Assembly (NCBI GenBank): GCA_964367095.1 | Contig: CAYIXE010000002.1 | Coordinates: 1-51,698, forward strand | Source: an uncultured Gammaproteobacteria bacterium | GTDB taxonomy: Bacteria; Patescibacteriota; Microgenomatia; UBA10105; UBA927 | Reading direction: 5' to 3' | Length of the DNA stretch: 51,698 bases | Shown: piece by piece, positions 27,001 through 50,152 of the stretch | How the letters are laid out: every line of letters starts with the position of its first letter | Position numbering within the stretch: position 1 is the first letter of the stretch | Position numbers and translations under genes: made by a program | The notes under the pieces: model-generated | Seen by the model: only the letters and a program-made list of their open reading frames with translations | Databases searched by the model: none | What the model was told of the DNA's origin: nothing

Positions 27001-30000
27001 GCGTCCTTAAGCAAAGTCAGCACAGCACCCAGCGATTTTTGAACTTTCCCAAGAGTATCAGGCGTTTGATCTTCTAGGGCCGCTTGTCGCTCCCCTTCTT
27101 GAGCTACCTCGACAAGATATGAAACGATGCCGCTGCCAATAGAAACAAAATTATTTCTGTCTATTCCCTTCGTAATCTTATTCAATACTCCCTGTCCAAA
27201 ATCTTTGGCCGGCGCTAAAGCGATAATTTGACGAAACGCCTCGTTGGCCAAAACAATTTTTCGCGCATTATGACTAAAAGTCATCGCCTCTGCCAGTTCA
27301 GTTCTCATTTCGATAGCTTCTTTGTCAGTAAGCGTAATACCCAAATCCGAAAGACTTTCTTCAAGATCATCCATCGTAAGCATGGTACTTCCCTCTGCAC
27401 GAATTTCCCGACTCGCCGTTTCCATTGCGATACGTAGTTCTTGATCAATCGCTAACCCACGAAGCCTTTCCACCTCGTTATCTACTTCTGTCTGTGAAAA
27501 TTTCGAAGAAAGTGGTGTTAGAACAATTGGCAAATTATGAGTACTGATTCTTTCAGAAAGCTTGTCATACACACTTCGGTCGACGGGCAGTGTTTGTGAA
27601 GACTCCGCATTCTTTAACAACGCCAAATCCTTTTTTGCATTCGCTTTTGTTTGAGCTCCTGACTCAATATATGATCCATCGATAAATTTATTGAGAACAA
27701 CATCTCTTAGATGTATTGCGTTCGTAAAATTCGGACTCAGAATATCTAACCGAACAACATTGTGTCCATCTGTATATATCGCTCCGTAATCTTGAAGCAT
27801 ATTACCAAGTCTGATGCCAATACTAAACGACGGTTGCGTTGTATCCACTGCCATTCTTTGCAATTTTTCCTCTAAATGCGCTAAATCAGTAACTAAATCT
27901 GAAGTCGTACTCTGAAGGGTGATTGGGTAGTTCTCTGGGTATCCACCCGATTTAAGATCAGAAACAAACTTGGTAATTTTATTTTGTATCGATTCATTAG
28001 AACCTTTCTCTTGCCCTTGCCCAGCTGTTTCTTTTTCCAACCCATCAATATATCTTTGCGCTTCGATAATGTGCTCGTCATATATTTCTTCAAGTGTTGG
28101 GATACGCTCACGGCTAAGAGTATCAACGGCCCTGCGCTTCAAGCGTTCTACAAACCTAAACAAAGGATTTTCTGATAACGTTTCTGTCTTCTTCAATTCT
28201 TCAACTAGTGTGTTCAGTTCAGTCTGTGGATCCTCTGAAATCTTCATTGTCATAATCGCATCAAAATCCGACAGATACATGGTGTCTAAGAATGTACCTA
28301 CAGCCTCGAGAACAGTTTTATTTTTCTCTGAATCCTTAGCCGCCTTTACTATTTCATCTGCAAGTTTGAGTCGATTCTCATTTGAAGCATTGCTGTATAT
28401 TTTCGCCTCAGAAGGTTGATTGAGTATCCGCATAAGCGCCGCCAATTTCTGATTGGCAAAGTAGGCGGCGGTGCTAAAGAGCATTTCATTGCCAGGCTCT
28501 CCACTTTTCTTATGCTTTTCCCGCTCTGCGTTTACAATCTTTATAACACCCTCATATTTACTCTTGGCGTCATCATACTGCCCCGCTGCTAATAAACTTC
28601 CCGCTTCTGTAAATAATTGGACAAAAATTTCCTTCAATTCTTCACAGCTACCACATGCGAGCGGTTGGAGCTCTGCTCCCCTGTCTACTGCCTTCTCAAG
28701 ACCCTTTATTCCTTCTGTAAGCCCTCGCGCAAATTTATCAATGTCCTTTTTTTGATTAGCAGTAAGTGCTTCACCGCCTATTGGTGCGCTTGCTTTTTCT
28801 TCTATCTCTTCTACAGTCGCATCAAAATATGAAGAATCGTCAAATGTAACACGAAGCATAGACGCACCATCTCGCTTTTCAGGGGATACTGAAGCTACTC
28901 CAATTTTTAAAGAAATATCCCCATCCACTCCAAGCATTACTTCTACTCTAGAAACATCATGGTCTAATGAAGAATCTCTGTAGATATAGAATACATTTGT
29001 CAATGGAATCTCTTTCCCATCACCCACATTGATTTTACGTATACTGGCCGCACCACCGGTATCTAAAACAATTTTAGGAATTTCAATCTTTGATGAAGCG
29101 GTATCTATGCCTGTTTGTACCAATTTATTGAGCCCTGAAGAGTTAGAAAGGTATTTTTTGTTTAACGAAATATTTAATTGCCTTAACGCATCTACGTTAT
29201 CAGTAGTCAGAACAATGCTTTTTTCCGCTCTATATTGGAGCTCGTTCAACACCAACTCTAACTCTTGTTTTTTCGTGATTGCCAGCTCATCCGGACGCCT
29301 AGCCTTAGTATCTCCAAATCCATCGATGAGTCGTAATGTCCCTTCGGGTGTCAATATAATGTTTATTGAACGCAGGTCGCCATGAACAGAACCAGTTATT
29401 TTCCAATGATTTATAACATCCCTGACAAATTGGTTCACCTGTGCCAAGGTAAGTATTTTATTCGTTGCATCGAACATCCGAGTCCCCTCCACAAACTCAG
29501 CGACAAAACCAATAGTCTGACCATCTTTAGTAACATCGCTGTAATAGCGAGTAATATTTAATCCACTACTATAGTTTTCCTCTGTCCCGTATGTCCGATA
29601 ATATTGAAGCTGCGTTTGATTCGAGGAATCCTGAGGATTCTCAAATATCTTTACTGCATATATTTTTCCTGAGAATCCTTTTTCCACAAGAATAAAAGCG
29701 GACTCACCAGATAAAATTTTATCTCCAGTAATCTGGATAACATCTCCATTATTTAAAATGATCTTCGCGGGAACTATATATCCATTTGACAGCGTTACTG
29801 TTAAGTCCTCCGTCTGCCCAAATGCACTGAATAAGGAGGTACCACTATAAGGATATGTATCGGCTCCAGTTCCTTCAATTTCGACTAACTCCTCTAATGG
29901 CAACACTTCTTCAGATTGATCAAAGCTCTCCCACTCTGGCTCTGGAGGAATATCTTCCTGTATCGTAATCTTTGGAGATAGGAGTTCTTTTATTTGCAGT

Positions 30001-33000
30001 TGTATCAAATTGATACTCTCTGATAACTTCTCAAGATCTGCCCACGAGGCTACCTGGGCACTTTGCGCTTGAATCTCAGCTACTGTGGCCTTAAATACTA
30101 CTACATTTGGAATGGTCTTATAATCCAACGAAAGCATAGACTTGGTCACTGTTTTCCACTGCATATCCGCTATCTGCCGCAATAACATTATTTCCTGCTG
30201 GTGTAGTCTGTCTAATTCTTCTGCATTCTTTTCGCGCGCCGCTTGTGCATCTTCTAAATCAAGCCCCGCAATCATACTGGCCCTCTGTGCCTCTTTAATT
30301 TGCTTCAATAATTGCGTATCAGTATTTTTTGCCTCAGCGTATAATCGCTCCGCTTCAGAAAACGCACTAGTTAATGCTTTTATTTTCGCAGCATTTTCTT
30401 GACTCTCATCCTTACTAAGAGCAATCTGATTTTGAGAGATTTTTTTCAGCGCGTCATTCACGCGTCCAATCAAAACTGTAATATCAAGCTGCATCTGTAC
30501 AGGCAGTACAGCATTAGATATATCTGGTAATTTATCTATCTTGAGTTTTTTTGCTTGCCCTATAAGACTCTTTAACTGTGATTGACTACGGAATTGTACG
30601 AAATAGTCATCAAGTGTTGCATCTATAAGTATTTTCTCTGTATTTTCACCTACCGTGGCCTGAAGAAGCGTTTTATATTTTAAGACAATACCTTTGGCCT
30701 CCTCATCCGTCCAGTTATTCTTTAAAACCAAAGAGGACAGCTGTAGATATGCGCTGTCATACAAATCCTTCCTATTATTATCCCGAGCCATCATAAGTCT
30801 AAGATTTGCTGATTGGTAATATAAACTATAGATTCCAAATTGTTTCTCTGATAAAGTGCTACTAATTAATTTCCCTATCTCAAAGATACTCCGGCCTGCA
30901 CCCTGAATCTCCTCAATCGAATAGGATGCTTTTTGGGCAATCTCCTGTAATTTCCCGATGGCAACCGTAAACGCATCAGCATTCGCATTTACGTCCTCTC
31001 CTCTTACAAGAGAAATACCGTCGGAATCAAGACTTACTGTAATCGTCGCATCGCCCAACTGTAGCGTATCTCCTTTATGGAGTTCTGTAGCGTCTGTCAC
31101 ATCCTTGGTATTAACTTTCGTTAAAGAACCAGTATAGGGCTCATAGAACCACCTGTTATTGACCTGATGAATCGTCCCATGCGCATTCTTAATTGCCTGA
31201 TCTATGCCTATATTTGGAAGAAAAATATTTACAAATTCACCTGATCCAATAATAAATTTTTTCGGCCCTTCTGAAGTTATTGCCGCATCGATGGTATTTA
31301 TTCTTACCGTTTGATTGGGTTTGAGTGTCCCTCCGCCTCGCACATCCTCTATGATAATTCCCAGATCGTCGCCTCTATTTGTCTCAAACGCTTTACTTAT
31401 TCGATTCATCATCACCGTAGGAACTTCAAACTGTGTACCCAACACCCATCGCAATAATCCTATTGCTTTTCTGGATTCTATTTTCCCAGAAACAGGATTT
31501 CGCACTGAAACATATTGACCTTTTACAGCAATATCAAACTCACGTGTTTTATTGTTTCCATCGGCAGGCTTTACTAATTCCCACCCAACCAAAGACTGCA
31601 AATGATCACTCCCTGATAAAATCACAAAATCGCGCCCAGGAGACAAATGAAAGCTCGCATATTGCGCTCTCGCTTGTTGCGAGCTAAACATATCTTGAAC
31701 TTGTGGACTTTTTGCAGTCTGAAATGTGTAGCCAGTGGCGATGCCCTCATAGACGTCATTTCTGTTTATGTCTACTATTTTTGAAGCTACATAGGCTTTT
31801 GAAACGCTTCTATCAACCACTAATATTACGCTATCAGCAATTGTGGCAGTGTGCAGCATATTTTCTGTCGTATCTAATACATAAATTCCTGCGGTACTTG
31901 AACCATTGAACCCTGTTGAATCCCCTGTAATAGCGAGTATGTCTTCATTTGCACGGTCAATCGCATTTTGCATTGCTTCTCTAATATTTGAATCATCTGT
32001 TTCTAAACTTTCTGACAGATACTTACCGACTAATTGCGTGACCATGTCCGCCACATACTTGCTGTTTTCTCCGCCTTGAGTCACACCATCTGAAGTCACT
32101 CCTACCACCAACCTCTTGCCAGTATTAGTAACGATCTCAGCGCGATACGGCTTACCATCTTGGTATGAATGAGGACTACGCCTTTGATTAGCAAACTCTG
32201 CTATACCAGCAAGATTAGACCTTATACGCTGCGGCAATAATCCAAGCAACGAATCAGTCGCTTTCCCGAGATTAGCAATAGCTTTTTGTAATAATTGAAA
32301 CTTAAGAAACGAAGCATTCAGTCGATTTCTGTCCGCTGTTTGATCTGTTGAAGGTGCAAAAGAGGTGATCTTATCTTTCTTCGCTTTTGCCTTTGCATCC
32401 TGCAATGCTTTTTTCGACGCATACTCTTCAACGTCAAGGGTAAATTGATTTCGCAAAAATGTTGTATTTTCTTGGGACGTAATTTTTGTTTTCTCTTGTA
32501 ATAACTTCACCGCATTATCAATATCCTCAGGATGAATATCCTTAGAAGAATTAATATAATTTTTCATCGCCAGCGAATACTTTTCATACAATTCTGCCTG
32601 AGTTTTCAATTGTGCTTCGGTATACTCTGCTAACGCTACCACAGCTTGTGGTGCGCTCAGCGCTCTCACTTTTTCACTTTCTGCTAATGCAAGCGCTTTT
32701 TTAGCCGTCTCTACTTGAATCCAAAGATCATCTTTTTTCACTAAATGATCTGCATATTGTTTTCTTAATGGATCTATCTTCGCTGATTTGCTTTTATAAT
32801 CTTCTTCTAGCCTCTTAAGCTCTTTAGTAATTCTGTCTTCAGAAATAGTCTTAGCTCTAAGAGCGTTTTTAATTTCGTTTGCTTTTTGCGTAGCTTCTTC
32901 TAACGTGAGCTGAGCCTCTACGGGAATAGGCTTAACCTTTTCCGCTGGCTGACTATTTGGATTCATCGTGGTGAGAAATATCGATCCAAACCCAACCTGA

Positions 33001-36000
33001 CTGCGTGATGGTATACGAACGATAAATCCAGCACCTTTGCTGCTTAGCCAAATACGATCACCGTTTGACAACGTTTTCGCTTGAGTATCTTCCGAATCCA
33101 ATTTTCCGTTCTCGTTAAATATACTGCTTTTGTTTACATAAACGCCATTGGTCGAATTCAAATCTTCTACAACCCAAGAAGAACCAGAATAATATATTTC
33201 TGCATGATTTCTACTGACATCCGAATCTGTTAATACGATTGTATTATTAGTGAAACGGCCAATGCTGGCTTTATTCTTAACTCCAAATACTTTACTATCC
33301 AACTCTAACGTTTCATGATCTTTTACTATATATCCCAAATTTATCGCTGGTTCTGCGTCTGCAATCCCTATCGATGACATCTCGACAGCTTTTTCGGAAA
33401 GCGTTGGCTTTCTATATGGCTTTTGAATACTCGGAATAAACTGAATCGGCTCACCGTTGTTTGCTATAACCTGATCATCGCCAATAACCCAACCAGACAT
33501 AACATAGGTTGGAAATGAACGAAAATCAGGAGCTGCATGATCAAAATATGTTAACGTTGTCAACGTATACGCTAAAGGATCTCGACCAATAAAATTTGAC
33601 CGCAGTATTTCTTTGTAATGTTCGACAACTTGTGGGTTTAATACGGCAAATATCGGATCAAAAATTTCCTCAATTGTTTTAATACGTTGATCATATGAGG
33701 CCCATTGGACTTTCGCTTTAACGTCTACTAACTCGGCCGATTCTTTTATGAGAGCAATCGCACGCTTTGATGTAAATGGGATAGCAAGATGCAAAATCCC
33801 GGTATTACCACTTTCTTGTTGGGCCGAACCAAAATCACTCACCATGTGAGCTGTTTGAGCTCCCGAATATGCAGCGTCATCAAAATAAACAAAATCTACT
33901 ACTCCCTTATCTCCATTCCTTTTTTGCCACTGAGCCAAATCAGTAATTGACACGACTGCGACCGGTTGGCTTGTTAATGAGTCGCCCTCAAGCGATTGAC
34001 GAGCAATTTCTCGCACCCACGAATCGCTTGCTTGAGGATCATCAGACGTGACGATTACAAAAGGCTTTGATCCCAAAGATTTTTTCAAATCTTTCACTGT
34101 CTCGCGAAGTTGCTTCATAAAATCTTCAAACGAAATACGTGTTATATTGTTTGAAATTAACGTTGCCACGTCACGAATTTCACCATCAGGATGAGCATTT
34201 ACCCACTGAGTACGTTTCCTCTCATCAAATAACGCTGGTTTCACCGACAAATTTGGAGTTTCCACGACTTCTTCTATGAGACTCACAGCACCACCGGTAT
34301 CTACGACAGTCTCAACAATAGGCGCAATTTTCACATCTCTAGCTTGAACTTGCAAATGTTGAATACCATCTTTTAGCTTTACAATCCAATACAATAAACG
34401 ACCAGATCCACCAGACTCATTTTCATTACTTATCACTTTTGCCTTTACCGTAATCGTGTTCACGCCCGTTGTGTAGGTAACATCAACTTCATCACCCACT
34501 TTCACTGGATTATTTGCCACCATCGAAATATTTGTCGCACCAGCTATGTAGTTATATCCTGCAACGGGTGCAGGTTGTGCTGCAGGTGCAATTATTTTTT
34601 CTCTGTAGACTGTGTACGAACCATTACTGTTTCTTGCAAACACCGTTTTTTTGTCATTTATCTGAAATTGTATTTGATCTTGCACAATTTCTCGTTCAGT
34701 ATTTGTAGGAACATCACGACCTTTTGAATCCTTTACCCCAAAACGATCTATAGTGAAAAATAGTGACGTTATTGTTCCATCGTTTCTCCAGTTGGTATGG
34801 CCATATTGCGTCTGTAAATCAGACCGAACTGTGGTTAGTATCAATTCTCCTGAAGCATGCAATCCGATAAAGACTATCTGGCCATCTTTAATGTCTCCCA
34901 TCAATTCATAGACATTCAAATCGATTGCAACCGTCGCTACTGGCGCAGAAACTGGAGGAACAATCACTCTTGGCTGTTGTGCTGGCGTTATTTTAGTCCG
35001 ATTGATGACCCATCCAACGCCCCGCGCTGCTTGATACACGCTAAATGGAACTGTGATAATCCATAAGGGTATAACTGCTATGAAAAAAAATACTAAACCG
35101 ATTAACGGAAGACTCGCTAACCACGGAGCAATAAAGAATGAAGCTATGCCAAGTACTCCTAATGTCAATAACGTTCTTCTTAACGGAGCGTTAAGGATAT
35201 TCCATAGTCCGCCAGTACGTGCAAATATCGATTCCTTTACGATCGGCACCTCTGGTGAATCTTGTGGTGCAATAGTTGCAACTTGCGGCCTACCTGTACG
35301 AACTTCAAGCAATCGTGACAAAATTTGATCAATAAATTTTTTCCGATTTTCCTGCCATTGTTGATCAGATTCAGTAAACCCATAAAAAACTAATTGTACT
35401 TTTCCTGCATTTTTTACAATAGCGAAATAATCAACAAGCGCTTCTATTTCTTCAGCCTCTAATCCAATAATATCTTTACTTGTTTCCAAAATAGAATGGA
35501 GCGTTGTCTTATCTTCTGCAGAGAGCTTCGTGGTTCGCGGCGTCGATATATCCTTGACAAGAAAATTGTAACTTGCTCGTCCTAAAAGCGCTAACAACTC
35601 TGGACTCTTCGCTGAATCGCTTTTAAGAGCATTTGCTATCTTAACTTGACCAGTTTGGTACTGTGGATGTCGTTTGACAGCCTCTACCGGAAAACCGCTC
35701 AATAAACCGAAGCGTTTATCCTGAATTGGAGTATAACCTGAAATATTTAGCCACAACCATTCATTTGGATTTGCTATGAGCCACGCTCTAGGATCTTTTT
35801 GAGCCTCCGATGAATTAAATATATCAGAATTCTCTTGAATAATTTTTTTGGCGAGATCAAAATTTACTAGTGAATACCGCTCGAGACGCATCTCATCTGT
35901 CTCATCTGGGTGATGTATAAGTCCAACTACACCCCCCAAATCGTTAAGCGTTTTATCAATCTGGGCTTTTTCAGAATCTGTCAAATTCAAGAAGGCTTGT

Positions 36001-39000
36001 TTTTCTGGTAATCCTCCCGCAAACACAGCTGCAAACTGGTCATCATATTTCTGTACTTGATTCCGAACTCTTGGGACAAGAGCTGATCGAAATAATTGGT
36101 AATTTTTCAATCCAGTTTCAGCAGGTTCTGGAAGAGGTTGTTTTGCTGGCGCGACTTCCGCAGGTGGCAGCCATTTCCACTCTTTTAATGGATGATATAT
36201 TTGTGATTTCCCTAAACTCTTCCACCCATCACCGTAGAAAAATCGATGTGCATCGTAGTGCCATAATGGGCCAGTTGTTAGTCCTAAAATAGCTGCTGCT
36301 GCACCGATAATAAGTGGTGCCCCTGGTATCCACCACGTCGCAATTCCGGCAATTAGAAGAACTATCGCTGGCCCGCGAGTTGTCCACCAGATAAGCGAAT
36401 CATTTGTCGGTGTCGCATTGATCAACCGCCTCGGAACAAGACCAAACATGTGTCCACCCCTATTCCAGTAATCAGGTTTTTCATATCCGGCGTCTATAAG
36501 CTTTGCAGTTTTCCCTGTCACCCCTTCTACATACCGTCGCTCTGCTCTATATATATCCCACCCCAACAAATAGGGACGGCGAATCCTTGTGATTGTATGT
36601 GTAAATATGCTCGTAAACCAAGTTAATGGTGTCCATTGCGGATTTCCCGCGTCAAACATCGTCGCGTTTACTAAACTTTCAAGATACCCCTCTCGACTAT
36701 CTGCCAATACGTTTACCACCAGTTGTTGCGCATCTTTCGGTACCACCCAATCAACAAATTTTTTCAAACGTGGATATCCATCCAGAATATGTATATCTCC
36801 CAAAAAGAAATTCTGCACTCTCGGCCATTGTGCGATTATATAAAAAGGTAATTCCAATGCTGTCCGTAAAATATCATATACTGCAATTCCAAGAGAAATC
36901 GGTATACCGGCAGGCCCCAAAAACACTATCGGCGCTGCATATCGTGGAATAATGCTTGCGATCGCAAAGGTTAATTCAGGTGTTGAATAACGTTTACCAA
37001 AGATTGCATAAACATTCGGTGAAATAATTGCCTTTATCACATTGCCAAACTTCACCCACTCATTGGGCTCTAATCGATCTTGATGGGTTGATTGAACAGG
37101 CTGTGTAGCTTGTCCAGTCACATTCTGAGCAATTGGCGTTGAAGCACTATTCCCCTGCACATACGCGATAGCACTTGCAATGATCGCGTGTTTAGTAATA
37201 AATGCGTCTATTGCACGCTCAGCCGGCGATTGGGTCACAGGAATTGATGTAAACGTATTTTGTGCACGTTCTTGCCCCAATGCTTGAAGTGAAACAATAA
37301 CTCCGTGTTTATGAAGTTCTACTAATTCACTCGTTAATACGTCATCAAATGACCGATTGGTATTCTGCCTCATCTGAACTGTGGAAATGACAGCAGAGTC
37401 ATATCCAGCAATTGCGTCTACAAGGGTGATCTCTTTCTGTGTTTGCGGTGTATCATTTTGTAGCTCACCGTATTCATCTTTCAATCGACTCCAAATATTT
37501 TTTCTAATTTCAAGACTCAATGGATCAGCTATTTCTTTAGCATCTCCATCTTTGGATTCCAAAATCGTTGCAACCAACGCATACGCTTCTGCAGGATGAT
37601 TAGTACTAAATAATTGCTGGATAAATGCTTGCGCCTTTTTCTGTGCTACATCTGATTCTGTCGTAAGCTTAGTCACGTCATCGATTGCACGTTGAATTAA
37701 TAAAGCATCCTTTGTTGCGTTCGCATTAGAAAGCGCCGTTTCCGCTACTTTTTTGGCTGCAAATGTTTTTATATATACATCAAGCTCTACAGGCAACACG
37801 ATAGACACTGTTGGTGGTTGCGCTTCTGGCGGCTGACTGGCTGGCTTTTTTGTATCCTGTCGGACAAACTTTACAAAATCATCCTTGGTTAACGTGCGAG
37901 GGATAAAGGCTTGTCGAAATGACTGCCAGTTTTTTGCGATAAACTGTCCCGCAATTGCAAGTCTGCTCGGCCGAGAAGCTTTTCCTGCCTGCTGTAAACG
38001 ATCTTGTTGAAAAGTGATTACCTGTTCTAGCGCGCTATTCTCAAGACTGGAGAGAATCGGCGCTGAAATTGCCCGAGTCATCTCGCCTACCAGAGCTTGT
38101 TTATGGGCATCATCTTTCACCTTGTCAAGAGAACCATCGGAAAATTCAACTATGTCTCCCAGTTTCGCCTGTTTTGCTATCTCAATATTAGATTGAGCTT
38201 TTTCAAGCTCTGTATTTTTATACGTCACACCAGGAGCAGTGAGAATTACAGAAATAGCATCTGCCAAAACACCTTCTATGTTCTTTGTTTGCTCTGTCAC
38301 AAATGCCTTCGTCTGTTCGCTTGAAGCATTTGCTCCAATTGATCCGACTGCTTTTGATACCGCTTGCTCATAATTTACCATTGCAGCCGCCGCAATATTT
38401 AAGTTGACAACACTAAGCGAATCTACATTTATGACCCCTGACTTTGCGAGTTCTGCCTTAAGACGCTTCATTGCGTCTTCTTTAAGCATATCTGTTATCT
38501 GATCATCAGTTAAACTTAAAAGTGGAGCAATCAAGGTATCAATTTGAGCTATTTGTGTATTCAATTCCTGCAAGACTGTGCTACTTGGCGCAGTCTTTGA
38601 TCCATCGGTTACTAGTGTGGTTTCTGGGTGTTCATCAATGTTTAACATGCCATCAAAAGAATCGGGAGTAATTATACGAATGTCCGTAACACCTGCTGGA
38701 ACAGCAAAAGTGGTGTTGGATTTATCATCAAAAGTAAATGTATGTAACTTCGTTGAAGAAGGGGTGTCAAACCACTCTATTCGTGTCCCGTTTGTAATAA
38801 CTTGAGAGGCATCTACGTCTTTTTTATTCGTAATAACAACATCATTGAGAGTAATCTTTCCCGCATTACTTATAATCTGTGATTGCACATTTACTGCCGC
38901 AGTGAGTGATCTTTGCTTTATCAATTCTTGTTGACGAGTAAGAAATATTGACCGCTCCTGTTGGGCGAGAGTAAGCGTATGTCTTTCTTCTGGGGTCAGG

Positions 39001-42000
39001 AGTTTACCCGCTAAAGCCTTCTCTGCCACTGCTTTTGCCTTGGCTATAGAATCCAGTGCGACTTGTATACTTTCGTTACTTCGTGCTGAAGCTGCTCGTT
39101 CTAGCTGTGCTATTTGTTCTCGCGTTGATGCCGTGGGCGTCTGCCGGCCTTCACGGCCTATAGTGGCCGCGATGTCTGACTCAAATATCGCTTGATTTAT
39201 AAATTTTGTTCGTTCTGAGATACTCTTGGCTCCCTGCAAACTTCTCCGAACCGTAGACTCTGTGGGTGAACCACCTTGCAATGCAATAGGCACATCTTCA
39301 TAGTTATAAATATTTTTTAGATAATACTCGCGGACTTCGATTGGCAATTTAGCAAATTCCGGTGTCGACTTAATACTATTGATATAATCGCGAGCACGAG
39401 TCGCTGCTTTTTGGATTGCAACTGTTCCTACTTGAGAGGACTCGGTGAGTGCATCATTTACCCCACCCACCTTATCAAACTGCAACTTTAATCCATCAGA
39501 AAGAGACATTTCTCTCCCCTCATACGTCATCGTAAAATCTTCTCCACCATATTGCTTTACCATTTTCGCCAATGAATCTATCGTATTTTTTACCATGTCT
39601 GAATACCCATGGATCAAACTATTTGTGACCGAAATTTGTGTACTCGCTATTTCATTGACAAGAAGCCGAACTCCTGCGTCTTCTAAGGCAACTTTAGTCA
39701 AACCATCTGCAGCCTGCTTATTAAAAAGATACACAATAGTTTTTTCAGGTATTTCTCGAAATCTCCCAATACCTTGTGCAGCTGATGTTTGTGTGAGCGT
39801 TTCCGCGCTTCCAAAAAGATATGATGCATCAGTGGTTATAAACACGTCCTGAATATCAGTTCCTCTTCCAGATCCTTGATCAAAAACCAAGACAAATTTC
39901 TTGTCTCCCCTATTTTTAAACGCGTATTCTTTTTCAAAGCGTTGTATTGCTGTTTTTTCACTGTCTCCAACAATTGTTCTTTTTATTGTTCCGTCTTGAT
40001 TATAGATAACTACTTTTTCATTTTCTGCAATATTTGTATCGTTATTTATAACAATCAGCTCTACATCCTCACCTAATGCGTTTATCTTTTTTTGAAGACT
40101 TTTCAACGTTACTTCTTTTGAATAATCTTGCATCTCCAAAACAATTCGAGCTGCACCTTCTTTCCCCAATGTAATATTCGCATTGTCTACATCCTTTGCT
40201 CCAAACCACTCTGTCTGCTTAATTGGTTTTGTTTCGGGTGAACCAAAAATTTGAAGAATAGACGTAAGCTTTTTTACCCCAGGAACGACGAGTTGCATAT
40301 CAAGTGATAGTTGAGCATCTAAAAGGATGCTCTCTGGAGTACCGGTAAATCCATACAGTCTGTCTGCATAATGTCCCATTCCAAGTGTCTGTTTCCATGA
40401 CGAGGACTCTCCTTGAAGTGAGACGGTTACTTTATCGATAAAGGCCATTGCCTGATCATGGGTAAATGACGTATTACGCAATGAATTTTTTATCATTTGT
40501 CCCACAGTATCAAGCGCCAGTGCTTCATAAAGCGCTTGTGGACGAGTATTCTGAAGTCTCCCTGTCCCGTCGCCATAAACCAAAATCCCTTTCGGATCAA
40601 ATCCATATCCGCTTGTGGATCTGCTTGCTGTCTCCACAATAGCGTTTACTACTCCTGCCCTATCACTAAACTCTGCTTTAAATTCACTCGTTGCCTCATT
40701 TCCCTGATGATATTTTTCGAGCGCGGCGAGCACATCTCTTGGATTTGTTCTTGCCCCTGTTTCATCATGGGTAATAAAATTCTTCTGCAAAAATTCTTCT
40801 GCTGTTTGTGTATCACCTTGTGCTTTCACTTTTTCAAATGTTTGCTTCGCTGCCTCTATCACCAAATCTTTGTACAATCCTTTGGCCAAATCCGTATCAG
40901 CAAGGGAAACACTTTGTCCTTTTTGTACAAAAAGATCATCTCCTATAGATCCTCCATTTTTCACGGTACTCGCTTTTTCTATAAAGTCTTTAGCTAAATC
41001 AGATTTGAATACATCACGAAATTTTTGCGTTCGTATGGGATCATATTCAGCGGCCAATCGTGAATCACCACCGGACGAAAACTGCATGCTGTTTGCTATC
41101 ACATCAAACTCGTCGATAAGAAGCATCGCGCCCTTGGTCCCCTCTCGAAATCCCTGCGTGAGAAGATCTCCATTTCTTGAAGCATGAAACTCATAGGGGG
41201 TCTCTAGTGTCGGGCTGTAAATGATATCTGCGTTAGAGAGTATTTGTTTGGCAAGGACGTCATTTTGATGATTTGATATGCGTTGTTGTACTCCTGCCTC
41301 ATCTACATAAATTATTTCGGCACCAGATGGATTGTAATACACAGCCTTCACTTCATTTTGATGGTGTACTAACGGACTGTAGTCTTTCATCATGCCTAAG
41401 ACATCAGCCCATGAAGTCGCAAGCACGTTTACCTTCGCACCAGTAAGTTTTACTTTTGCATCTGCAATAGCATTGAGAAGAAATGCGGATTTTCCAAGAC
41501 CTGTCTGACCGTTAAATAAGACCCCTTTTACATGGCCAGATATTTCCGTGTCAAATAACGCTTTAATAAATATTTCTGACTGGTCAACGCGAGTGAGATG
41601 ATCCGGCCCTATCATTTCGGAGATTCTACCACCAGTTGCAGCTGATAAATTATCTTCGATAGTTCGTAAAAACTTCGATGCCTCATCCAACATTTTTACT
41701 GTTGCTTCATTTTTAGGCCCAGCCAGAGTATTTTCTGAACTTGCCATATCTACCAAATATAACTGTTTATCAGCTCCTCTTACTATTTGAAATCCCTCTT
41801 TCGTCAGTGCGTCTGCTACAACTGATAATTTTCCAAGTGTATCTGCGACAACAACCTGCTTTGCAGTCGATATTTCCTTTGGTCCAAACCACTTATATCT
41901 CAGGCTCGATGTATATGCTGCCTCTTTCGCATTTGATATAGCCAGCGCTTCGTTTGCTTTCTGGGTTAATTCTATGATTGTTCGATCAATAGATTCAATT

Positions 42001-45000
42001 GCTTTACTTTGATCGGGAGTCGGGTCACTTCCTGCTTCTTTAATAAGTAATTTTTTGTTATTTTCGGCTCTCGTGACAAGCTCAAAAGCATCAGCGTATT
42101 CAATTCGTGCTTTATACACTGCTTCACGAACAGATTTCCCTGTCCATAAATCACTTATCTTCTCTTTAATCGGTTTTGTAGCCAAGTCAATTTTTCCTCT
42201 AAGTGTGCCTGCCTTCACAAATTCCTGTTGCTTTCCTGCTATGGCCACTGCGGCTTTAGTAATATTTTTCTGCAACGCACTCGCAAGTTCCACCTTATTA
42301 TTAGCAACCGCAGTCATTCGTTCTACTATACTTTTTCCAAAAATCCCATCCGCTTCTAATTTCGCAATGGAATCAATAGCTTCTTTTGTTCTTGTAATAA
42401 TTCGCTCGGTCTCAGCTATAAGCGTTTTTGAGGCTCCAGTTTTTGCTTGTAGTTCGACAAGGCTTTCTTGTGAAGCTTTAAGAGCCGCTTCGTATGACTG
42501 TTTCACCTCTGGAAGTTTAGAAGGATCAGTAATAATGCTATTTTCGACTTCTATTTGCTTGATTTTCGCTTGCATGTCGACAAGGCCTTCTGCTGTTTCA
42601 CTGCCGTACTGTAAATCTCGAATTGCTAGGGCAATTGCACGTTTAGCTGGGGTCATTCGCGCTTCTGCGGCAATCGTCTTTAAAAGCTCTGTGGCCTGCA
42701 GTGCTGCGACATACTTGGCAGAAGTCGCACTTTCAGTTTTTACAATTCCCTCAAGTACTGCCGCTGCTTTTCGATACTCTGAAAATTCCGTGGTCTCACT
42801 GCCAAGAATTTTATCAAGAGCCGTTCTGCCTTCTGGTTCGATACGAGCCAACTGTTGCTGTTCATACGTTGATTGATTTAAGCGCACAGCAAGCCGCGCT
42901 GCCTCTACCATCTCTGCACTAATTTTTTCTTTTATCATCACCCCATCAGCATCGAAAAATTTCTTGTAGACTTCCAAACTTTTTATCAGCTCGTCTCTGA
43001 CAGGATTTGGTCCTGATGCTTTTTCCTTCGCAAACTGTTTAGAAAGCTCAAGAATCTGATATGTTTCACGCGCCACAGCATTGGTAGTTATTGCAAGACG
43101 AGTGTTTACTTCAGATTGCACGCTCAATTTAGTAACCTCAGTAACTTCGATACCATTTATGGTTAATTTTTGCCCCACTTTCCAATTGGCAAGCGCTACT
43201 TTGTCTGCAATTGCTTGTGACTGTTCAATATATGGATTTTTTATACTTGTTGGCTCGCCAACTGCTTGCGTCTGCGCTAGTTGACCCGCAGAAAGTCCCG
43301 CCATCATAACGGTGGTAGCACATTGTTCAAACGGCACTTCTCCAAATGCGGCAGCTGAACAGGCTACAACAGCTTGCGCTGTATTGACGCTCACATCCAA
43401 ATGACCGATGGATCGTTGCGTCGTAGGCGTATTGATTCTGGATGCAGGCGCAAGTCCCGCTAATCCTGAAACAAATCGCGCACCCATAACGCCTGCCATG
43501 CCAATCGATAGTGCACAGTCTACCGCTCTCGCCCCTTCTTGAGTACATGCTTCAGCGGCGTTGGCTCCAAAAACAATGGTTCCCAATCCATCACGGATAA
43601 TACGCGCACCATTACTCTCCACCGGACTATAGACACTCTTTCCCAACTTAAGTATGACATCATCAGATGATGCCATAACTTGTTCAAAAGTCGTACCTGT
43701 TTCCAAAGCCTCGTCACCAAACTGACGAAGTGAAATTACCGCATCATCAGAGGATGCATAACCGGTTAGTGCTCTACTCGTCGATACTCCTACAGCCCCT
43801 TGTTCTGCTTTTGCTATATTCGTAAGTGCCTTAACTCCTTTGAGCCCTGCTACAGACGACCATGCTGAAAATGCCGTCATGCCCGCAGATCTCAAGCACG
43901 CTCCGTCATCCTGATCGGTCCGCAGACTACACGCCTCTGCTGTATCCTGAAGACTCGATCCGGTCATGTAGATACCAGCCGCATTGCCTAACGTAGAAAG
44001 CGCAACTGCAGAGGTTATACCTTGTGCAGCAGCTCGGACAAGTTGTCCCCCTGGAAGAATAAGCGCCGCTCCACTGAGTATTGGCTTCGCTGTTTGCATT
44101 ACACCACCACGAAACTCATCCCATACAGCCTGCCCACAACCCATCGTTGGTGCATCTTCAGTCCCCAAACATGTGCCCCACATTTTGGCGTTATCCCGCA
44201 ACTGTTGTCCTTTCAAAAGCCCCCCGTTTTCAAATTCATTGAGCCACAAGGCGGCTTCTACACCTGGCTTTGTCGCTTTAAGATGTGCTAGGTCTGCTGA
44301 CATCTTCTCTACGTTATGTGTGCCATTCATGACCGACTCAAAAGAAATCTCAACTCCACCTGAACCCATAAGAAATTGCACGTCTTTATCATGAAGGAGT
44401 GCTGTAAACTGACGTTTTTGATACTCCTCTGGGGATCCTTCTATCCCGCGCTTTTTCATAGCCTCTTCAGTCAGCTTTAGACTATCCGCCAAGTCTTCTT
44501 CGTTTTTCATGTCAAAATATGCATTAGCCACAATCTTTTCCTGTGCTTTTACCGCCTCGTCGTGTTTTATTTGCCATGCCTCGTATGCAGGATTGGCAAC
44601 TCTTCCGTTGGTAGCTGATGGAGCTGATCCTACGTTTCTATCGTAATCAGCCTGCCACTGCTTCATTTGATCTACATACGCATCGACATTTTTTCCTGAA
44701 AACGCGGCGTTTTCAAGCCATCGCGGATCATATGCCAGAAGGCTCTCCATATTTTCCGACTCATAGTCTATCTTTGCCTTCATCTTATCCGTCTCAAGAT
44801 AGGCAAGAGCCAAATTTTTCTCTAAATATTCTTGGGCGTCATCTTTAGAGGAATCCAAATCAGCTGTTTTTGTAAACTGTATAAATTCTGGATCTTTTGC
44901 AATATTTGCTTTATAGGTATCAAGAAATAAGGGGTCTTTGTGTATTGCTTCACTCACAAAGATGTCTGAGGAACGTGCGGCCATAGTCTCTTTCGCACCT

Positions 45001-48000
45001 TCAGTGATAAGCCGGGCGCTCACTTTCCCATCTTGATCAGAAAAGACGAGTGCTCGAAGTTTTGTACTTGCATCTATCTTGTCATAAGCCTCAATTGCAT
45101 CAAACTCTCCCCGTTTTATCTTTTCGACAAGCGCTCGTTCAATCTCAGGATTATCAGGTCGCGTGTACCCTGCTGCTTCAAACTTTGATTTATTATTAAA
45201 AAAACGTTCAAGGCTAGCTATCGCTGCAGATTTTGCTGCTCCCTCAGGCATATCGATGGTTTGCCCAATCGCTTTATTATGTGATTCTTTTGGAGAATAC
45301 GAAAGCCGCTGATTTAATGCGGCACCAATATTATCGAAAACCTTTGCAACCCCATTAAGTCCTATTCGTGTATAACTCTGACACCCTTTTGTACACATTT
45401 CTGGATGCAATCGATCAAGCTCCGCAAGAGGATTTAACTCGCCTTTTCTATACTTATCCAAATTTATCTCAAATTCGCCGGCATTATCCCATTCAACCCT
45501 AAGAAGCGTTATAGCCTCCTCTTGAGCCTTCATATATCCTTCACGCGTCAAATCCTTATCTTTATTTTTGGGATCTTTTATCCACGCTTCAAAATCATCG
45601 TTGAGATTACTCTGCGCATTCATTTCTTGAACGATTATCCGTTCAGGGGGCGGGAGATTCGCTATAACTTTTTCCGGTCGAAGATTTGTGTCGGTAATGA
45701 GCTTTGTAAGCCTAGCCACTGCATCTTTTGTGGTAGCAAACCGTTCTGTCATGGGAATTTTTCCGTCTCGTTTTGCTTGAGCAATAGCCCCCGCTACAGC
45801 GACAGCATCTTGACTATTTAATGTCACTAACTGTGACAACTGCAACTCATATAACCTCGTATTCACCGCTCCCAGTTGGGTCGGCGCATTCTTTTTTGTA
45901 AAGTCTACAATCGTTTTTGTTACAAACGCAGGGTCATCTGTACACCCTTTTTTATCTTTCGCATTTGTGACAAGCATCCCGCAAAGAAGTCCATCAACCC
46001 CAAGAGAATCTCTATCGAGCATCTCTAAAAGAATATTTGTACGTTTGTCTGCAAATTCTTTAGCTTCCGTAACTCCCACTACTGGAGTTAGTTTATTTAC
46101 AACCGCTTCGGCTGAATCACACGGCACACCGTTGCATAATTTTGCATTACTTTGATACAGAACCATATAGATCTGACGCTGTTCTAGACCCTGATCCATA
46201 ATCCTTGAAAGCATTATTTTCTTCTCATCCTCTGAAAATTTGGCACTAGTGATCTGTGACCGTATCACCTGTTGTATTGAAAGAAGATCTTTCGTCAAAT
46301 CTGAACATTCAGCTAAAGACTCTTTGGAAGGACGAGGGCCTTGATTGGCAACGCAAGCTCCAACCTGCGCACTTTTGTTTAAATATTCATTCTCTAACTT
46401 CCCCAAAACAACCTCTTTATAGTGAGATTCCAGTTTTTCTGGTGTATCAAGTCCTAGGGTGGTAAGCTTTTCGTCAGCCTTTGCTTTCGCTAGATCCAGT
46501 TTGGTTTTAATATCACCGCAAACATCACTCCTTTCATAACTACTATCCTCAATGCCATCCAAGCACGTGTCATACGCCTCTTTCAGTGAAAGATACGAAT
46601 CCGTTGCAGTCGCGCTTTGTTTGTTAAGAAGTCTTTTTTGCTGGAGTGTCAGGTCTTCTTCTCTCGTAAACCCAAAGGTGGTTTCCAAAACTTTTTTCGC
46701 ATCGCTCACTTCTTTAGAGATTTCCTCGCACCCGCGTGCTGAATCGTATTTATCCGCACACGTATTGAGCTTGTCTACCAGTGCCAAATATTCCTCTATC
46801 TTTTTATTTTTTTCAATCAAATCCGAAATTGTCTTTTTCCATTCCACGCCAATTTTCGTATCGAGTAAGTTTTTTTGACCCTCGGCAAGATTTTTCTTTA
46901 ACTCTTCTACACATTTTGAGTCAGCTTGACCTTCACTTTTACATGCAAGAAAGTCATTTTGCTGAGAGACAAACTCTTCGGCTTCTTTTATGTATTCCTC
47001 GGCCTTGCCAAGGTAGGAAGGAATAACGCTCAACGGACACCCGGGACATTGTTCCCACATACCAAGGGTCGGATCTTTAGGATGTGGCACACAGCGCCAG
47101 CGCTGATTATCATTCATCTCTGTCGGAGCATCCCCATAGTCTTCTCCAGTCGCGACAGCATTTTCAGGAATAGAAACGTCATTTGCCCCATAACACGTCA
47201 CTTCTTTTTTGGGTTGTTCAATTGGACTAAACTCAGCTCTTTGGATCAAAGATAAACCGCCAAACGAAGAAGGTGCTCCAGCTATGGCAGGAGACACTCC
47301 TTGTGCAGCCATAAGACACTTTTCATAATCTCTCTCTGTCATACGCCCTGCTGCAAACTCCGCATCACAATCAGCCTCCGTCTTTGGCACTTTCGGTGTG
47401 GGGACTGCTACTGGCCGAAGAGTAGTTGAGGGGACTGGGGCAACCGGAGCAACTCTAGGATAATCCTCTCGCGTTCCTCCCCTAGCTGAATTAAGTGCAG
47501 GATCAGGTACAAGAGCAGGCTTACATATCGCATCATTATAAGTCTCTGTCGATCCATTTGGACACCGCAGGAAACAAAAAGGCCAACATTTTTCTCCTGG
47601 TTCTAACGGGAAGATTGTGACTCCACCCGCAGTCACTTGCGTTGTCGGGAAACATTGTTTAGTTTCCGCAATATAAACTTCTCCATCTTTGCAATTTTTA
47701 TTTAAAATCAGTTGTTGTGCTGTTGTAAGTGCGCTAGGCGCTTGAGGAGGAGCAGGCGTATTGGTTGGGACAGATGCTACTTGACGAATCGTTGGCGTCA
47801 CAGGAAAATTTACTTTACACGTAGACTCACATGCAGTTGAGTTCTGACAGAGCTGTATACAGTCAAAAAATGTTAATTTCAACGTTGGCACTGGCGACAC
47901 CACAACTGCTACTGGTACAGGTGTTTTTTCCGCGATAGGTGTTGTAGGTATAACAACTGGTATAGGGGTGGCGCCCCAAGCTGCAGCGATAAGACACTTT

Positions 48001-48572: not shown

Positions 48573-48602
48573 GCTCGGGATTACACGAAAATTTATCAAT
48601 CT

Positions 48603-48632
48603 ATTATAACAATCTATAAAAAAGTGGATCAA
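48603..48632 (-). promoter_or_regulatory. putative sigma70-type promoter of the giant ORF
   Basis: On the minus strand: TTGATC (48627-48632), an 18-nt spacer, then an extended -10 TGT-TATAAT (TATAAT at 48603-48608). The same 10-mer TTGTTATAAT precedes the tRNA-Ala gene at 49429-49438. Confidence 0.4.
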
Positions 48633-48744
48633 TAGTGACGATTTTGAAGACTGAGGAGATTTTTTGGTGTATTCACTTTGAATTGGCTCTATGATATGGT
48701 TTATCAAGGATTAACAAAAGCCCCGATATCCCCAAATGTTTCAT

Positions 48745-49579: not shown

Positions 49580-50152
49580 ATGATTATGAATAAATCAGGT
49601 GGCTATGAAAGCCTTTTAGTGTATCGATTTGCAGTGGTGATATATGATTTGACAGAGGTATTTTGTCAAAAATACCTATTTAACCTCGCATTTAAGCGAG
49701 ACGTTGAGCAAATGCGACATGCAGCCCGAAGTGGGAAGCAAAATATCGCTGAAGGGTCACTCGAGAATAGTGTGGAGGGAAACCTAAAGCTTACTGGGGT
49801 TGCGAGAGCGAGTTTTGGAGAATTGCTTGAGGACTATAAAGATTTTATTCGAAGAAATAGTTTGTCTTTGTGGGAGAAAAATGATCCTAAAATATTGGAA
49901 ATACGAAAAATACGAGACGATGCCAATGGGTCAAATAAGTCTAATAGGTCTTATCAGTCGTATGTTTCTTATCTAGAAAAACCCGAAGAATTTGCTAATC
50001 TTATGGTCACGTTATGTTATACAGAGGGATACTTGATGGATCAGTTATTGAAGGCTATAGAAAATAAATTTGTCGAAGAAGGCGGGTTTCGTGAAAATTT
50101 ATTTCGAAAAAGAAGAGAGTATAAAGAGAAAGGGCCTGTGGTATACCGGTAA
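49580..50152 (+). CDS. four-helix-bundle protein (23S rRNA intervening-sequence protein / Avd-like family)
   Basis: Track ORF of 190 aa. YRFAVVIYDLTEVF ... RSGKQNIAEGS ... ARASFGELLEDY is typical of this family. The C-terminal GGFRENLFRKR looks like the described suffix domain. Confidence 0.7.
   Translation: MIMNKSGGYESLLVYRFAVVIYDLTEVFCQKYLFNLAFKRDVEQMRHAARSGKQNIAEGSLENSVEGNLKLTGVARASFGELLEDYKDFIRRNSLSLWEKNDPKILEIRKIRDDANGSNKSNRSYQSYVSYLEKPEEFANLMVTLCYTEGYLMDQLLKAIENKFVEEGGFRENLFRKRREYKEKGPVVYR

Follow-up and report, generated by a model that had tools for sequence, protein, structure and literature searches.

A divergent SF2-type motor in giant membrane proteins of groundwater Patescibacteria and its possible relation to SecA

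How chains of 10,000-100,000 residues are exported or inserted into membranes is an open question, and giant bacterial proteins are largely unexplained. This question is raised by a 51,698-nucleotide stretch of contig CAYIXE010000002.1 (assembly GCA_964367095.1), in the following called the window, on the minus strand of which a giant open reading frame (ORF) extends over almost the entire length. A preliminary description of this DNA had recognized a SecA-like motor ATPase about 2,350 residues into a membrane-anchored giant protein and had speculated that the motor serves energy-dependent remodelling or export, possibly of the protein itself. What kind of motor is this, and is it related to SecA? 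The analysis has shown a predicted catalytically intact, two-lobed nucleoside triphosphatase (NTPase) of the superfamily 2 (SF2) type at residues ~2380-2990 (window 41573-39741, minus strand). It appears to represent a new, highly divergent family of SF2 motors within giant proteins from the candidate phyla radiation (CPR), and a derivation of this family from SecA is plausible. The frame and the parts of the motor are arranged as follows.

3..48710, minus strand: giant ORF, open over at least 16,236 codons without a stop, with its C-terminus past the low end of the window
41067..41573, minus strand: ATPase lobe 1, N-terminal part (residues 2380-2548), with Walker A, KLTGAKVNVLAT, ADIIYSPT, Walker B and FSSGG
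41510-41487, minus strand: motif I (Walker A), GQTGLGKS
41228-41208, minus strand: DIIYSPT (as ADIIYSPT, 41231-41208)
41123-41103, minus strand: motif II (Walker B), LLIDEFD
41081-41067, minus strand: FSSGG, following Walker B
40431..41066, minus strand: insertion between motifs II and III, about 212-240 residues (2549-2760), with the blocks FITHDETG, GYGFDPKGILVYGDGTGRLQNTRPQ and ALALDTVG
40335..40430, minus strand: return strand and motif III (residues 2761-2792), VTVSLQGESSSWKQTL...LYGFTGTP
40352-40335, minus strand: motif III, GFTGTP
39741..40163, minus strand: ATPase lobe 2 (residues 2850-2990), with ARIVLE, IVINNDTNIAENEKV, motif V FVLVFDQGSGRGTDI (39896-39852) and motif VI QGIGRFRE (39776-39753)
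39875-39852, minus strand: motif V, GSGRGTDI
39776-39756, minus strand: motif VI, QGIGRFR, 76 nucleotides beyond the interval first stated for the motor (39852-41510)
39111..39740, minus strand: conserved extension after motif VI (residues 2991-3200), with GYSDMVKNTID and no assigned fold

The six motifs listed in the preliminary description lie in the given order in one stop-free reading frame of the minus strand, with QGIGRFR alone outside the interval given there. Walker A is residue 2401 when counted from the opening of the frame and about residue 2355 when counted from the probable start codon TTG 48572, which agrees with the earlier placing. As read from the sequence, the motor has a complete series of SF2 motifs (I, Ia, Ib, II, III, V and VI) in two lobes, and motifs II and III are set apart by a large insertion. 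Walker B is found about 125 residues past Walker A, and the two arginines of motif VI stand one residue closer together than those of the classic QxxGRxxR. Lobe 1 is supported by in-register hhalign matches to the first lobes of SecA, DEAD-box proteins and UvrB and by matches to the Pfam family ResIII (E 0.0012-0.09), the return strand with motif III by a local hhalign match of family columns 423-469 to SecA 347-395, and lobe 2 by in-register hhalign matches to motif V of SecA, lobe 2 of DEAD-box proteins and motif VI of UvrB. A hidden Markov model of SecA also aligns residues 2038-2134 of the distant homologue P0010, the equivalent of the return strand and motif III, in register. There is no cysteine in the motor domain of the window protein, and none is conserved across the family.

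In every homologue found (L003-L007, L026-L028, P0004-P0006 and P0010), these motifs are conserved in the same order and at the same or similar spacing, at identities down to 22%. The Walker motifs, whose loss on re-translation would have spoken against the motor, are present in the frame. The lysine of Walker A and the aspartate-glutamate pair of Walker B occur in each homologue that extends over these motifs, and the first arginine of motif VI is kept in all homologues but the frameshifted fragment P0004. In the MAFFT alignment of ten members, the full-length proteins have the lobe 1 consensus G-x-TG(L/S)GK(S/T), (K/S)(L/I)TGxxVxV, ADxxY, LLxDE(F/A)(D/Q) and (F/I)SxGG. All of them contain the insertion, which covers about 240 residues with the consensus blocks ITxDExG, YGFDxKGxLVYGDGxGRLQNTRPQ and ALALDTVG. 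The return strand and motif III follow with VTVSxQGE..WKQIL...LYGFTG(T/S)P, and lobe 2 is characterized by ARVVL, (I/V)(I/V)NNDxNxAExEKV, RFxxVYxQGSGRGTDI and Q(D/G)IGR(A/F)RE, after which GYDDLVKNTID is found. In P0010, motif VI reads QAAGRDRG.

Protein databases contain hardly any members of the family. With three word-indexed protein searches, the index of which seems to pass over the giant ORFs, only four fragments from close relatives were recovered, and when 1.84 billion representative proteins were searched exhaustively with HMMER, 9 proteins were obtained, 6 of which are real relatives (P0002-P0006 and P0010). P0010 has 7,512 amino acids, of which residues 1709-2166 match the motor with 25% identity. 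A scan of GTDB genomes at the DNA level detected five loci (L003-L007), all inside very long open frames; the retrieved stretches contain more than 6,000 open codons in L003-L005 and L007 (6,257 at most) and 3,341 in L006. In five independent metagenome-assembled genomes (MAGs) the homologous frame is open for 10-18.8 kb, and in the window for 48.7 kb. Three further loci came from a metagenome scan, two of them from Hainich groundwater, and a tblastn search of plasmids and phages with the motor domain gave no match. The scarcity in protein databases is probably due to the gene being broken into many gene calls. The MAGs that carry the family are titled Patescibacteria or Candidatus Gottesmanbacteria, or, in three cases (L003, L005 and L007), 'uncultured Gammaproteobacteria', which is probably a mislabel. 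The same gene as in the window is also present on a 363-kb contig at ENA (ERZ1286166 contig_3783, L001), with 99% identity in the matched stretch and many short gene calls there, a fragmentation that is apparently caused by frameshifts; the giant protein of the window is accordingly present in protein databases only in the form of fragments. The host proteins of the family range from 7,500 to more than 16,000 amino acids. The sequences delineate what appears to be a small, very divergent family that is known only from giant multi-pass membrane proteins with several enzyme domains, which occur in groundwater Patescibacteria (Gottesmanbacteria-like).

Within the N-terminal 3,400 residues (window 38511-48710), conservation rises steeply towards the motor. 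Relative to L003, identities of mostly 10-40% are found in the first 1,100 residues and of 41-71% from there to the ATPase, and at residues 2401-3200 the identity amounts to 80-96%, with 37-63% to L005 and 31-55% to L007, for both of which the same gradient is seen. The most conserved 100-residue bin is 2701-2800, comprising the end of the insertion and motif III (96, 63 and 55% identity to L003, L005 and L007, respectively), and the extension behind motif VI still reaches 80-88% to L003 and 31-47% to L005 and L007. The ATPase block is the best-conserved section of this N-terminal part and, by this pattern, under the strongest purifying selection in it. Its hypervariable first portion is the region that would be extracellular (see below). 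Beyond about residue 3,260 the homologues diverge, and with P0010 the window protein has in common only the ATPase, residues 7284-7669, residues 10199-10635 and one further match of 49 residues.

The relation to SecA was addressed by profile-profile comparison with nine SF2 families, with the SF1 helicase Rep as control. The SecA reference profile was built from 12 SecA/SecA2 sequences from chromosomes and plasmids in PLSDB. In hhalign, the family matches this profile in four collinear, in-register local matches, namely Walker A (26.7), motifs Ib-II (28.5), the return strand with motif III (29.9) and motif V (32.0), which together give a chain score of 117.1. This is 11 standard deviations above the chains obtained with 119 valid column shuffles (mean 21.5, standard deviation 8.6, maximum 57.4); one further shuffle with a score of 135, which was tied to the last column of the profile, was excluded as a numerical artefact. 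At low stringency, there is a single collinear alignment to SecA over 526 columns. When profiles of comparable depth were used (7, 7 and 4 sequences), the scores were 114 for SecA, 86 for UvrB and 79 for DEAD-box proteins, and with single E. coli sequences they were 90 for SecA, 73 for RhlE, 70.5 for UvrB, 51 for DinG, 44 each for RecQ and Rep, 43 for Mfd, 36 for RecG, and 18 each for RapA and HsdR. SecA is the best collinear match in this set and the only tested family that matches across the return strand and motif III, and it is shown to be the nearest of the tested families at the level of sequence profiles. Because of the SecA chain score relative to the shuffles and the lobe-wide matches to DEAD-box proteins and UvrB, the predicted SF2 homology of the motor can be regarded as secure. 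The large insertion between motifs II and III lies exactly where SecA has its preprotein cross-linking domain (PPXD). Charge and pI are not discriminating, as the motor domain, SecA, UvrB and RapA are all acidic.

A number of results speak against membership in the SecA family proper. The hhalign probability of the SecA match is only 3.7%, each single local match to SecA scores at most 32, which is within the shuffle range (maximum 30.5), and the strongest single local matches are found elsewhere, i.e. with lobe 1 of DEAD-box proteins (45.2) and with the Walker A region of UvrB (38.6-43.9). In calibrations, SecA and DEAD-box proteins reached 116 with each other, UvrB and DEAD-box proteins 201, and DEAD-box proteins and RecQ 192, and the SecA profile matched the divergent SecA-like domain of a Legionella giant protein with 231 in one contiguous alignment. 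Measured against the 116 of SecA and DEAD-box proteins, the 114-117 that the motor reaches with SecA from four short matches is no higher than what separate SF2 families reach among themselves. The profile search that had been proposed to confirm the SecA assignment turned out negative: neither SecA_DEAD, SecA_PP_bind and P-loop_SecA of Pfam nor SecA/SecA2 of NCBIfam matched the window protein, the ten members or their consensus at E<=10, whereas the same SecA models readily recognized the control proteins L017 from Mesorhizobium (3.6e-101) and L019 from Legionella geestiana (SecA_DEAD, 6.2e-25). The best library matches were sub-threshold and pointed to other models (ResIII 0.0012, DEAD 0.015 and Csf4 0.021, the latter from NCBIfam and in 2 of the 10 members), and the family consensus matched only ResIII in Pfam. 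PADLOC, Pfam and NCBIfam gave nothing significant for the motor domain, PHROGs only a DnaC-like Walker A match. Among PDB sequences, neither phmmer nor a profile hmmsearch found a SecA or a helicase. AlphaFold2 models had a predicted local distance difference test (pLDDT) score of 35 with the sequence alone and of 44 with an alignment of 6 sequences, too low for a fold assignment, with values of 72-81 for domain residues 530-600 in lobe 2 within an otherwise low-confidence model. Foldseek searches with these low-pLDDT models gave no match with E<0.001 and only weak ones (E>=0.006) to ISWI, UvrB, DinG and RIG-I, none to SecA.

The SecA-specific parts give a similar picture. The insertion alone did not match PPXD profiles significantly (E 0.43), its 'global' score against PPXD was equalled by 64 of 200 shuffles, and Pfam SecA_PP_bind did not match it. 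An insertion at the position of the PPXD is found in all members, and significant similarity to the PPXD is not; the homology is only suggestive. For the scaffold, wing and IRA1 regions, a 330-residue extension was compared with SecA 560-901, and the best hhalign score was 15.8 (E 0.34) and out of register. What has held of the original SecA-like assignment is therefore the complete SF2 NTPase with its insertion and with SecA as best collinear match, and what has not is an assignment to the SecA family itself.

In the protein, the following parts precede the motor.

48489..48545, minus strand: N-terminal signal anchor FIQILPLVLFVVFSIGTFI (residues 56-74), with a Kyte-Doolittle mean of 2.43 over 19 residues
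43320..48431, minus strand: N-terminal region (residues 94-1797), rich in cysteine and in proline and threonine, hypervariable, with 44 of the 61 cysteines of the ORF
41691..43223, minus strand: cysteine-free stretch (residues 1830-2340) between the hydrophobic Gly/Ala-rich segment and the ATPase, read from the sequence, without Pfam match

Translation probably starts at TTG 48572, upstream of which there is a TTGATC-N19-TATAAT element, and this start would generate the signal-anchor-like N-terminus MSRDRNSSGFIQILPLVLFVVFSIGTFITV, in which SRDR precedes the anchor. That the protein is membrane-anchored, as described earlier, is in line with five strongly hydrophobic 19-residue segments (56-74, 3926-3944, 4116-4134, 4536-4554 and 10279-10297), and residues 1540-1790 form an additional Gly/Ala-rich zone that is moderately hydrophobic. 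The cysteines are very unevenly distributed: 45 of the 61 are located within residues 34-1797 (window 43320-48611), mostly in pairs 4-20 residues apart, the 45th being residue 34 upstream of the probable TTG start, and there is none in residues 1798-6685. This contrast to the cysteine-poor remainder suggests a disulfide-bonded, exported N-terminal region. Residues ~75-1,750 would then be outside and disulfide-bonded, with the chain returning to the cytoplasm thereafter, and it is for this cysteine distribution that residues 1830-2340, a putative helical or coiled-coil linker, and the ATPase are placed in the cytoplasm. In the whole ORF, Pfam recognizes FHA, with two FHA stretches in the protein, two protein kinases (one match above and one below the curated threshold) and a solid GDSL lipase, to which PP2C_2 just below threshold, a sub-threshold PRTase-CE and weak sub-threshold LytR_cpsA_psr and DnaJ matches can be added. 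No Pfam family is found in residues 1-4900, and apart from an intein the scan of all 16,236 residues revealed no DNA- or RNA-binding, nuclease, methyltransferase or other nucleic-acid domain.

With a probability of roughly 45%, the motor is a SecA-like, polypeptide-handling ATPase that is a fast-evolving descendant or sister of SecA. This reading is based on the position of the insertion and the first rank of SecA in the comparison, on the membrane tether beside a large region that is apparently exported in a protein that has no nucleic-acid theme elsewhere, and on the pattern published for giant proteins of Omnitrophota and Actinobacteria. The weak J-domain, the kinases, FHA and PP2C domains, and the exported enzymes downstream of transmembrane segments have also been counted as a fitting protein context. 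In terms of architecture, the motor would comprise a first nucleotide-binding domain with a PPXD-type insertion, followed by the second nucleotide-binding domain without scaffold or wing, and it would be the CPR counterpart of the divergent SecA-like domains in those other giant proteins. It would be positioned at the cytoplasmic side of the membrane, C-terminal to the exported cysteine-rich region of about 1,700 residues, where ATP hydrolysis would be used to seize unfolded polypeptide and move it along, probably parts of the same giant chain or partner proteins. Acting at SecYEG or at the transmembrane segments of its own chain, it may help in the export or insertion of the exported regions. 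A bolder version, which has to be regarded as rather doubtful, sees in the SF2 family a sister or derivative of SecA that is the built-in translocation motor of self-exporting giant CPR surface proteins. The tethered cytoplasmic ATPase would in that case feed thousands of residues of the same chain, possibly including the downstream exported enzyme modules, across the membrane, and the insertion, to which the most conserved 100-residue bin belongs, would function as polypeptide clamp. Self-export by the motor is speculation, as it already was in the preliminary description.

A SecA-independent origin of the motor, the main rival reading, is less likely. In this case, the motor would be a stand-alone deep SF2 family and a nucleic-acid-dependent helicase or translocase, comparable to DEAD-box proteins, UvrB, DinG/Csf4 or the helicase modules of polyvalent multi-effector proteins, and the insertion would be an accessory domain like the Arch domain of XPD/DinG. 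In XPD and DinG helicases, too, motifs II and III are separated by a large insertion, this Arch domain. ResIII, DEAD and Csf4 are the sole library matches, DEAD-box lobe 1 and the UvrB Walker A region are the top single hhalign matches, ISWI, UvrB, DinG and RIG-I lead the weak Foldseek list, and the similarity to SecA is only at between-family level; the weak LPD3 and PRTase-CE matches in the giant protein also belong to domains of polyvalent or conflict-system proteins. Nevertheless, the collinear score is best for SecA, and only SecA matches the return strand and motif III, whereas the representatives of SNF2 (RapA) and of ResIII-type enzymes (HsdR) have the lowest scores, for which reason a SNF2 or HsdR assignment was rejected. 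An XPD/DinG assignment was rejected as well, due to the low DinG score, a motif II that is DEFD or DEAQ and not DEAH, and the lack of any cysteine between Walker A and Walker B, which means that there is no Fe-S domain of the XPD/DinG kind. Also against a nucleic-acid motor are the tether of the module to a membrane protein and the lack of DNA- or RNA-binding, nuclease or methyltransferase Pfam domains (intein aside) in this protein.

Less probable still is a mechanochemical switch or remodeller with SF2 fold, whose targets would be proteins outside the giant chain and which would not translocate polypeptide through a channel. It could, for example, couple ATP turnover to the way in which the kinase, FHA and PP2C modules assemble, come apart or signal, or to a cell-surface or host-contact apparatus. 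The intact and strongly conserved catalytic motifs would be compatible with this, as would the several Ser/Thr kinase-like domains, the two FHA stretches and the weak PP2C_2 in the same protein. The scaffold/wing region couples SecA to SecY, and no such region has been detected here; lobe 2 is followed by a conserved extension of about 250 residues that has no assigned fold. The regulatory domains, however, are more than 2,000 residues away from the motor and are not conserved, as the homologues diverge past residue ~3,260. That the motifs are chance P-loop-like sequences, or a DnaC/IstB-type AAA+ domain, in an ORF that is an assembly artefact, has a negligible probability. It could be argued for with the PHROG 'DnaC-like helicase loader' (1.3e-6) and with NCBIfam DnaI and PRK06835 (E 0.009-0.05), all of which cover only Walker A, and with the many gene calls into which the same gene is split in one ENA assembly. 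However, AAA+ proteins of the DnaC/IstB type consist of one alpha/beta lobe with a lid, carry sensor motifs and have Walker B some 55-60 residues behind Walker A, whereas the longer Walker A-Walker B distance and the second lobe with motifs V and VI are indicative of SF2 and not AAA+. The DnaC-like match was rejected as generic P-loop similarity, and the open frames in the window and in independent MAGs, the conservation of all examined motifs down to 22% identity, and the chain score far above the shuffles effectively refute the artefact.

Some further properties of the giant protein and its gene environment were recorded. An intein is encoded at ~23835-24875 on the minus strand (residues ~7946-8292; Intein_splicing 3.5e-15), which begins with CVTGDTKL and ends with GIVAHNTS and contains a weak LPD3 match (E 0.0013), and nearby there are two antisense ORFs on the plus strand (22903-23502 and 23545-24063). 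At ~17820-18210 (residues ~10,166-10,297), the weak J-domain (DnaJ) match is located directly before the transmembrane segment 10,279-10,297, past which the weak LytR_cpsA_psr and then the solid GDSL-lipase matches follow. A J-domain in this place may recruit Hsp70 next to a segment that needs to be exported. In the C-terminal part (window 3-19910, residues ~9600-16236), a near-exact repeat WWQRAIDSIRSLFNRMNIFQQSRTPSEEQKEEKKVPLPTP was noticed by eye at ~13,245 and ~13,845, as were three copies of the repeat IMRAIFG(V/A)...(E/K)IQKKAELEALQ(R/K)EC at ~14,316, ~15,573 and ~16,196, and HExxH-like motifs, e.g. at residues ~11,203, ~11,774, ~15,258 and ~16,020. Two genes are found upstream of the giant gene.

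50292-51440, minus strand: protein of 382 amino acids with LysM and Peptidase_M23
49580-50152, plus strand: protein with a sub-threshold 23S_rRNA_IVP match

The same LysM/Peptidase_M23 and 23S_rRNA_IVP neighbours are present on the ENA contig mentioned above, together with Rho.

A SecA-like motor in a giant protein, and its possible role in self-export, have already been published for other phyla. What is new is the occurrence in a CPR lineage, from which the literature found on giant proteins with SecA-like motors has no report, the divergence beyond Pfam recognition, and the fact that in an otherwise hypervariable protein the motor is the best-conserved module of the N-terminal core that the homologues share. 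This suggests that in Patescibacteria (CPR), too, giant proteins may carry the kind of motor published for those of Omnitrophota and Actinobacteria. A SecA-derived motor would support a general rule by which giant membrane proteins bring their own translocation ATPase, and a compact domain of ~620 residues that is biochemically tractable would be available; if the self-export idea is true, a giant protein would export itself in organisms whose genomes are minimal. A motor of other origin would be a new SF2 family, its accessory domain being new as well, and a caution against deducing SecA identity from short motifs that are common, in similar form, to many SF2 families.

Among the known SF2 systems, DEAD-box proteins resemble the motor in both lobes (family columns 57-200 versus 42-166, 45.2; columns 483-652 versus 195-352, 33.8), and UvrB does so in the Walker A region (38.6) and motif VI (28.1). 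Neither profile aligns across the insertion and motif III region, and both have collinear scores below that of SecA. In DEAD-box proteins, motif II and motif III are not separated by an insertion, and the motor presumably lacks the DEAD-box Q motif, PTRELA, TPGR and HRIGR as well as the beta-hairpin and UVR domain of UvrB. With XPD, DinG and Csf4 the motor has in common the insertion between motifs II and III, the weak NCBIfam Csf4 match and the weak Foldseek matches to DinG, and it differs from them in having no cysteine, in its motif II and in the DinG chain score of 51.

The likeness to SecA comprises two predicted RecA-like lobes with the same order of motifs, the large insertion at the PPXD position, and a series of motifs that are in register, i.e. 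Walker A with LTGxxVxV, ADIxY and DExDxI...(I/F)SxG, followed by the return strand with G(F/M)TGT(P/A) and VVP, xNxxxxxxE, GRGTDI and QxxGR. The pI is about 5.1 for the motor and 5.4 for SecA, both being acidic. Unlike SecA, however, the motor is not recognized by the models PF07517 (SecA_DEAD), PF01043 (SecA_PP_bind) and PF21090 (P-loop_SecA), its insertion is ~60-80 residues longer than the PPXD, lobe 2 has an insert of ~30-40 residues before motif V, motif VI reads GRxRE and not GRSGRQG, and there is neither a scaffold, wing or IRA1 nor the C-terminal zinc/SecB-binding tail. It is part of a protein of more than 16,000 amino acids, whereas SecA is a soluble protein of ~900.

Closer parallels in terms of context are known from other giant proteins. 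Divergent SecA_DEAD and SecA_PP_bind domains without scaffold/wing have been described in most giant proteins of Omnitrophota and in some of Actinobacteria (10.1101/2023.11.21.568195), with the Omnitrophota 'Archaeovorin' and dockerin types as giant proteins with SecA-like domains (West-Roberts et al., 10.1101/2023.11.21.568195), and it has been proposed that the Omnitrophota domains export their own giant protein (10.1101/2023.11.21.568195). A SecA_DEAD architecture cluster of 20 proteins has also been reported (10.64898/2026.06.07.730766). Another example is L019, carried by plasmid NZ_CP041715.1 of Legionella geestiana, whose 13.8 kb are taken up for about two-thirds by one ORF of 2,947 amino acids annotated as 'hypothetical', with HEAT repeats, SecA_DEAD (6.2e-25) and P-loop_SecA and without a SecA_PP_bind match; by its domain content, it is a further predicted SecA-like motor embedded in a very large protein. 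Truncated SecA-like proteins are also encoded on alphaproteobacterial plasmids, such as L017 of Mesorhizobium ciceri and H32, H34, H36 and H38. L017 has 653 amino acids with SecA_DEAD, SecA_PP_bind and P-loop_SecA and without the C-terminal scaffold/wing, and the annotations of these plasmid proteins vary between DEAD/DEAH box helicase, prepilin peptidase and SecA. The Patescibacteria motor differs from the Omnitrophota and Actinobacteria domains, which match SecA_DEAD and SecA_PP_bind, in matching neither, and from the Legionella domain in not being matched by SecA_DEAD, and the domains that accompany it in the giant protein are different ones (kinases, FHA, PP2C, intein, LytR_cpsA_psr and GDSL lipase). 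Its protein nevertheless has the size of these giant proteins (>10,000 amino acids, given at least 16,236 codons) and at least five strongly hydrophobic segments, and, like the domains of Omnitrophota, Actinobacteria and Legionella, the motor is a long-branch, fast-evolving module without scaffold/wing within a giant protein with multiple transmembrane segments and multiple enzymes.

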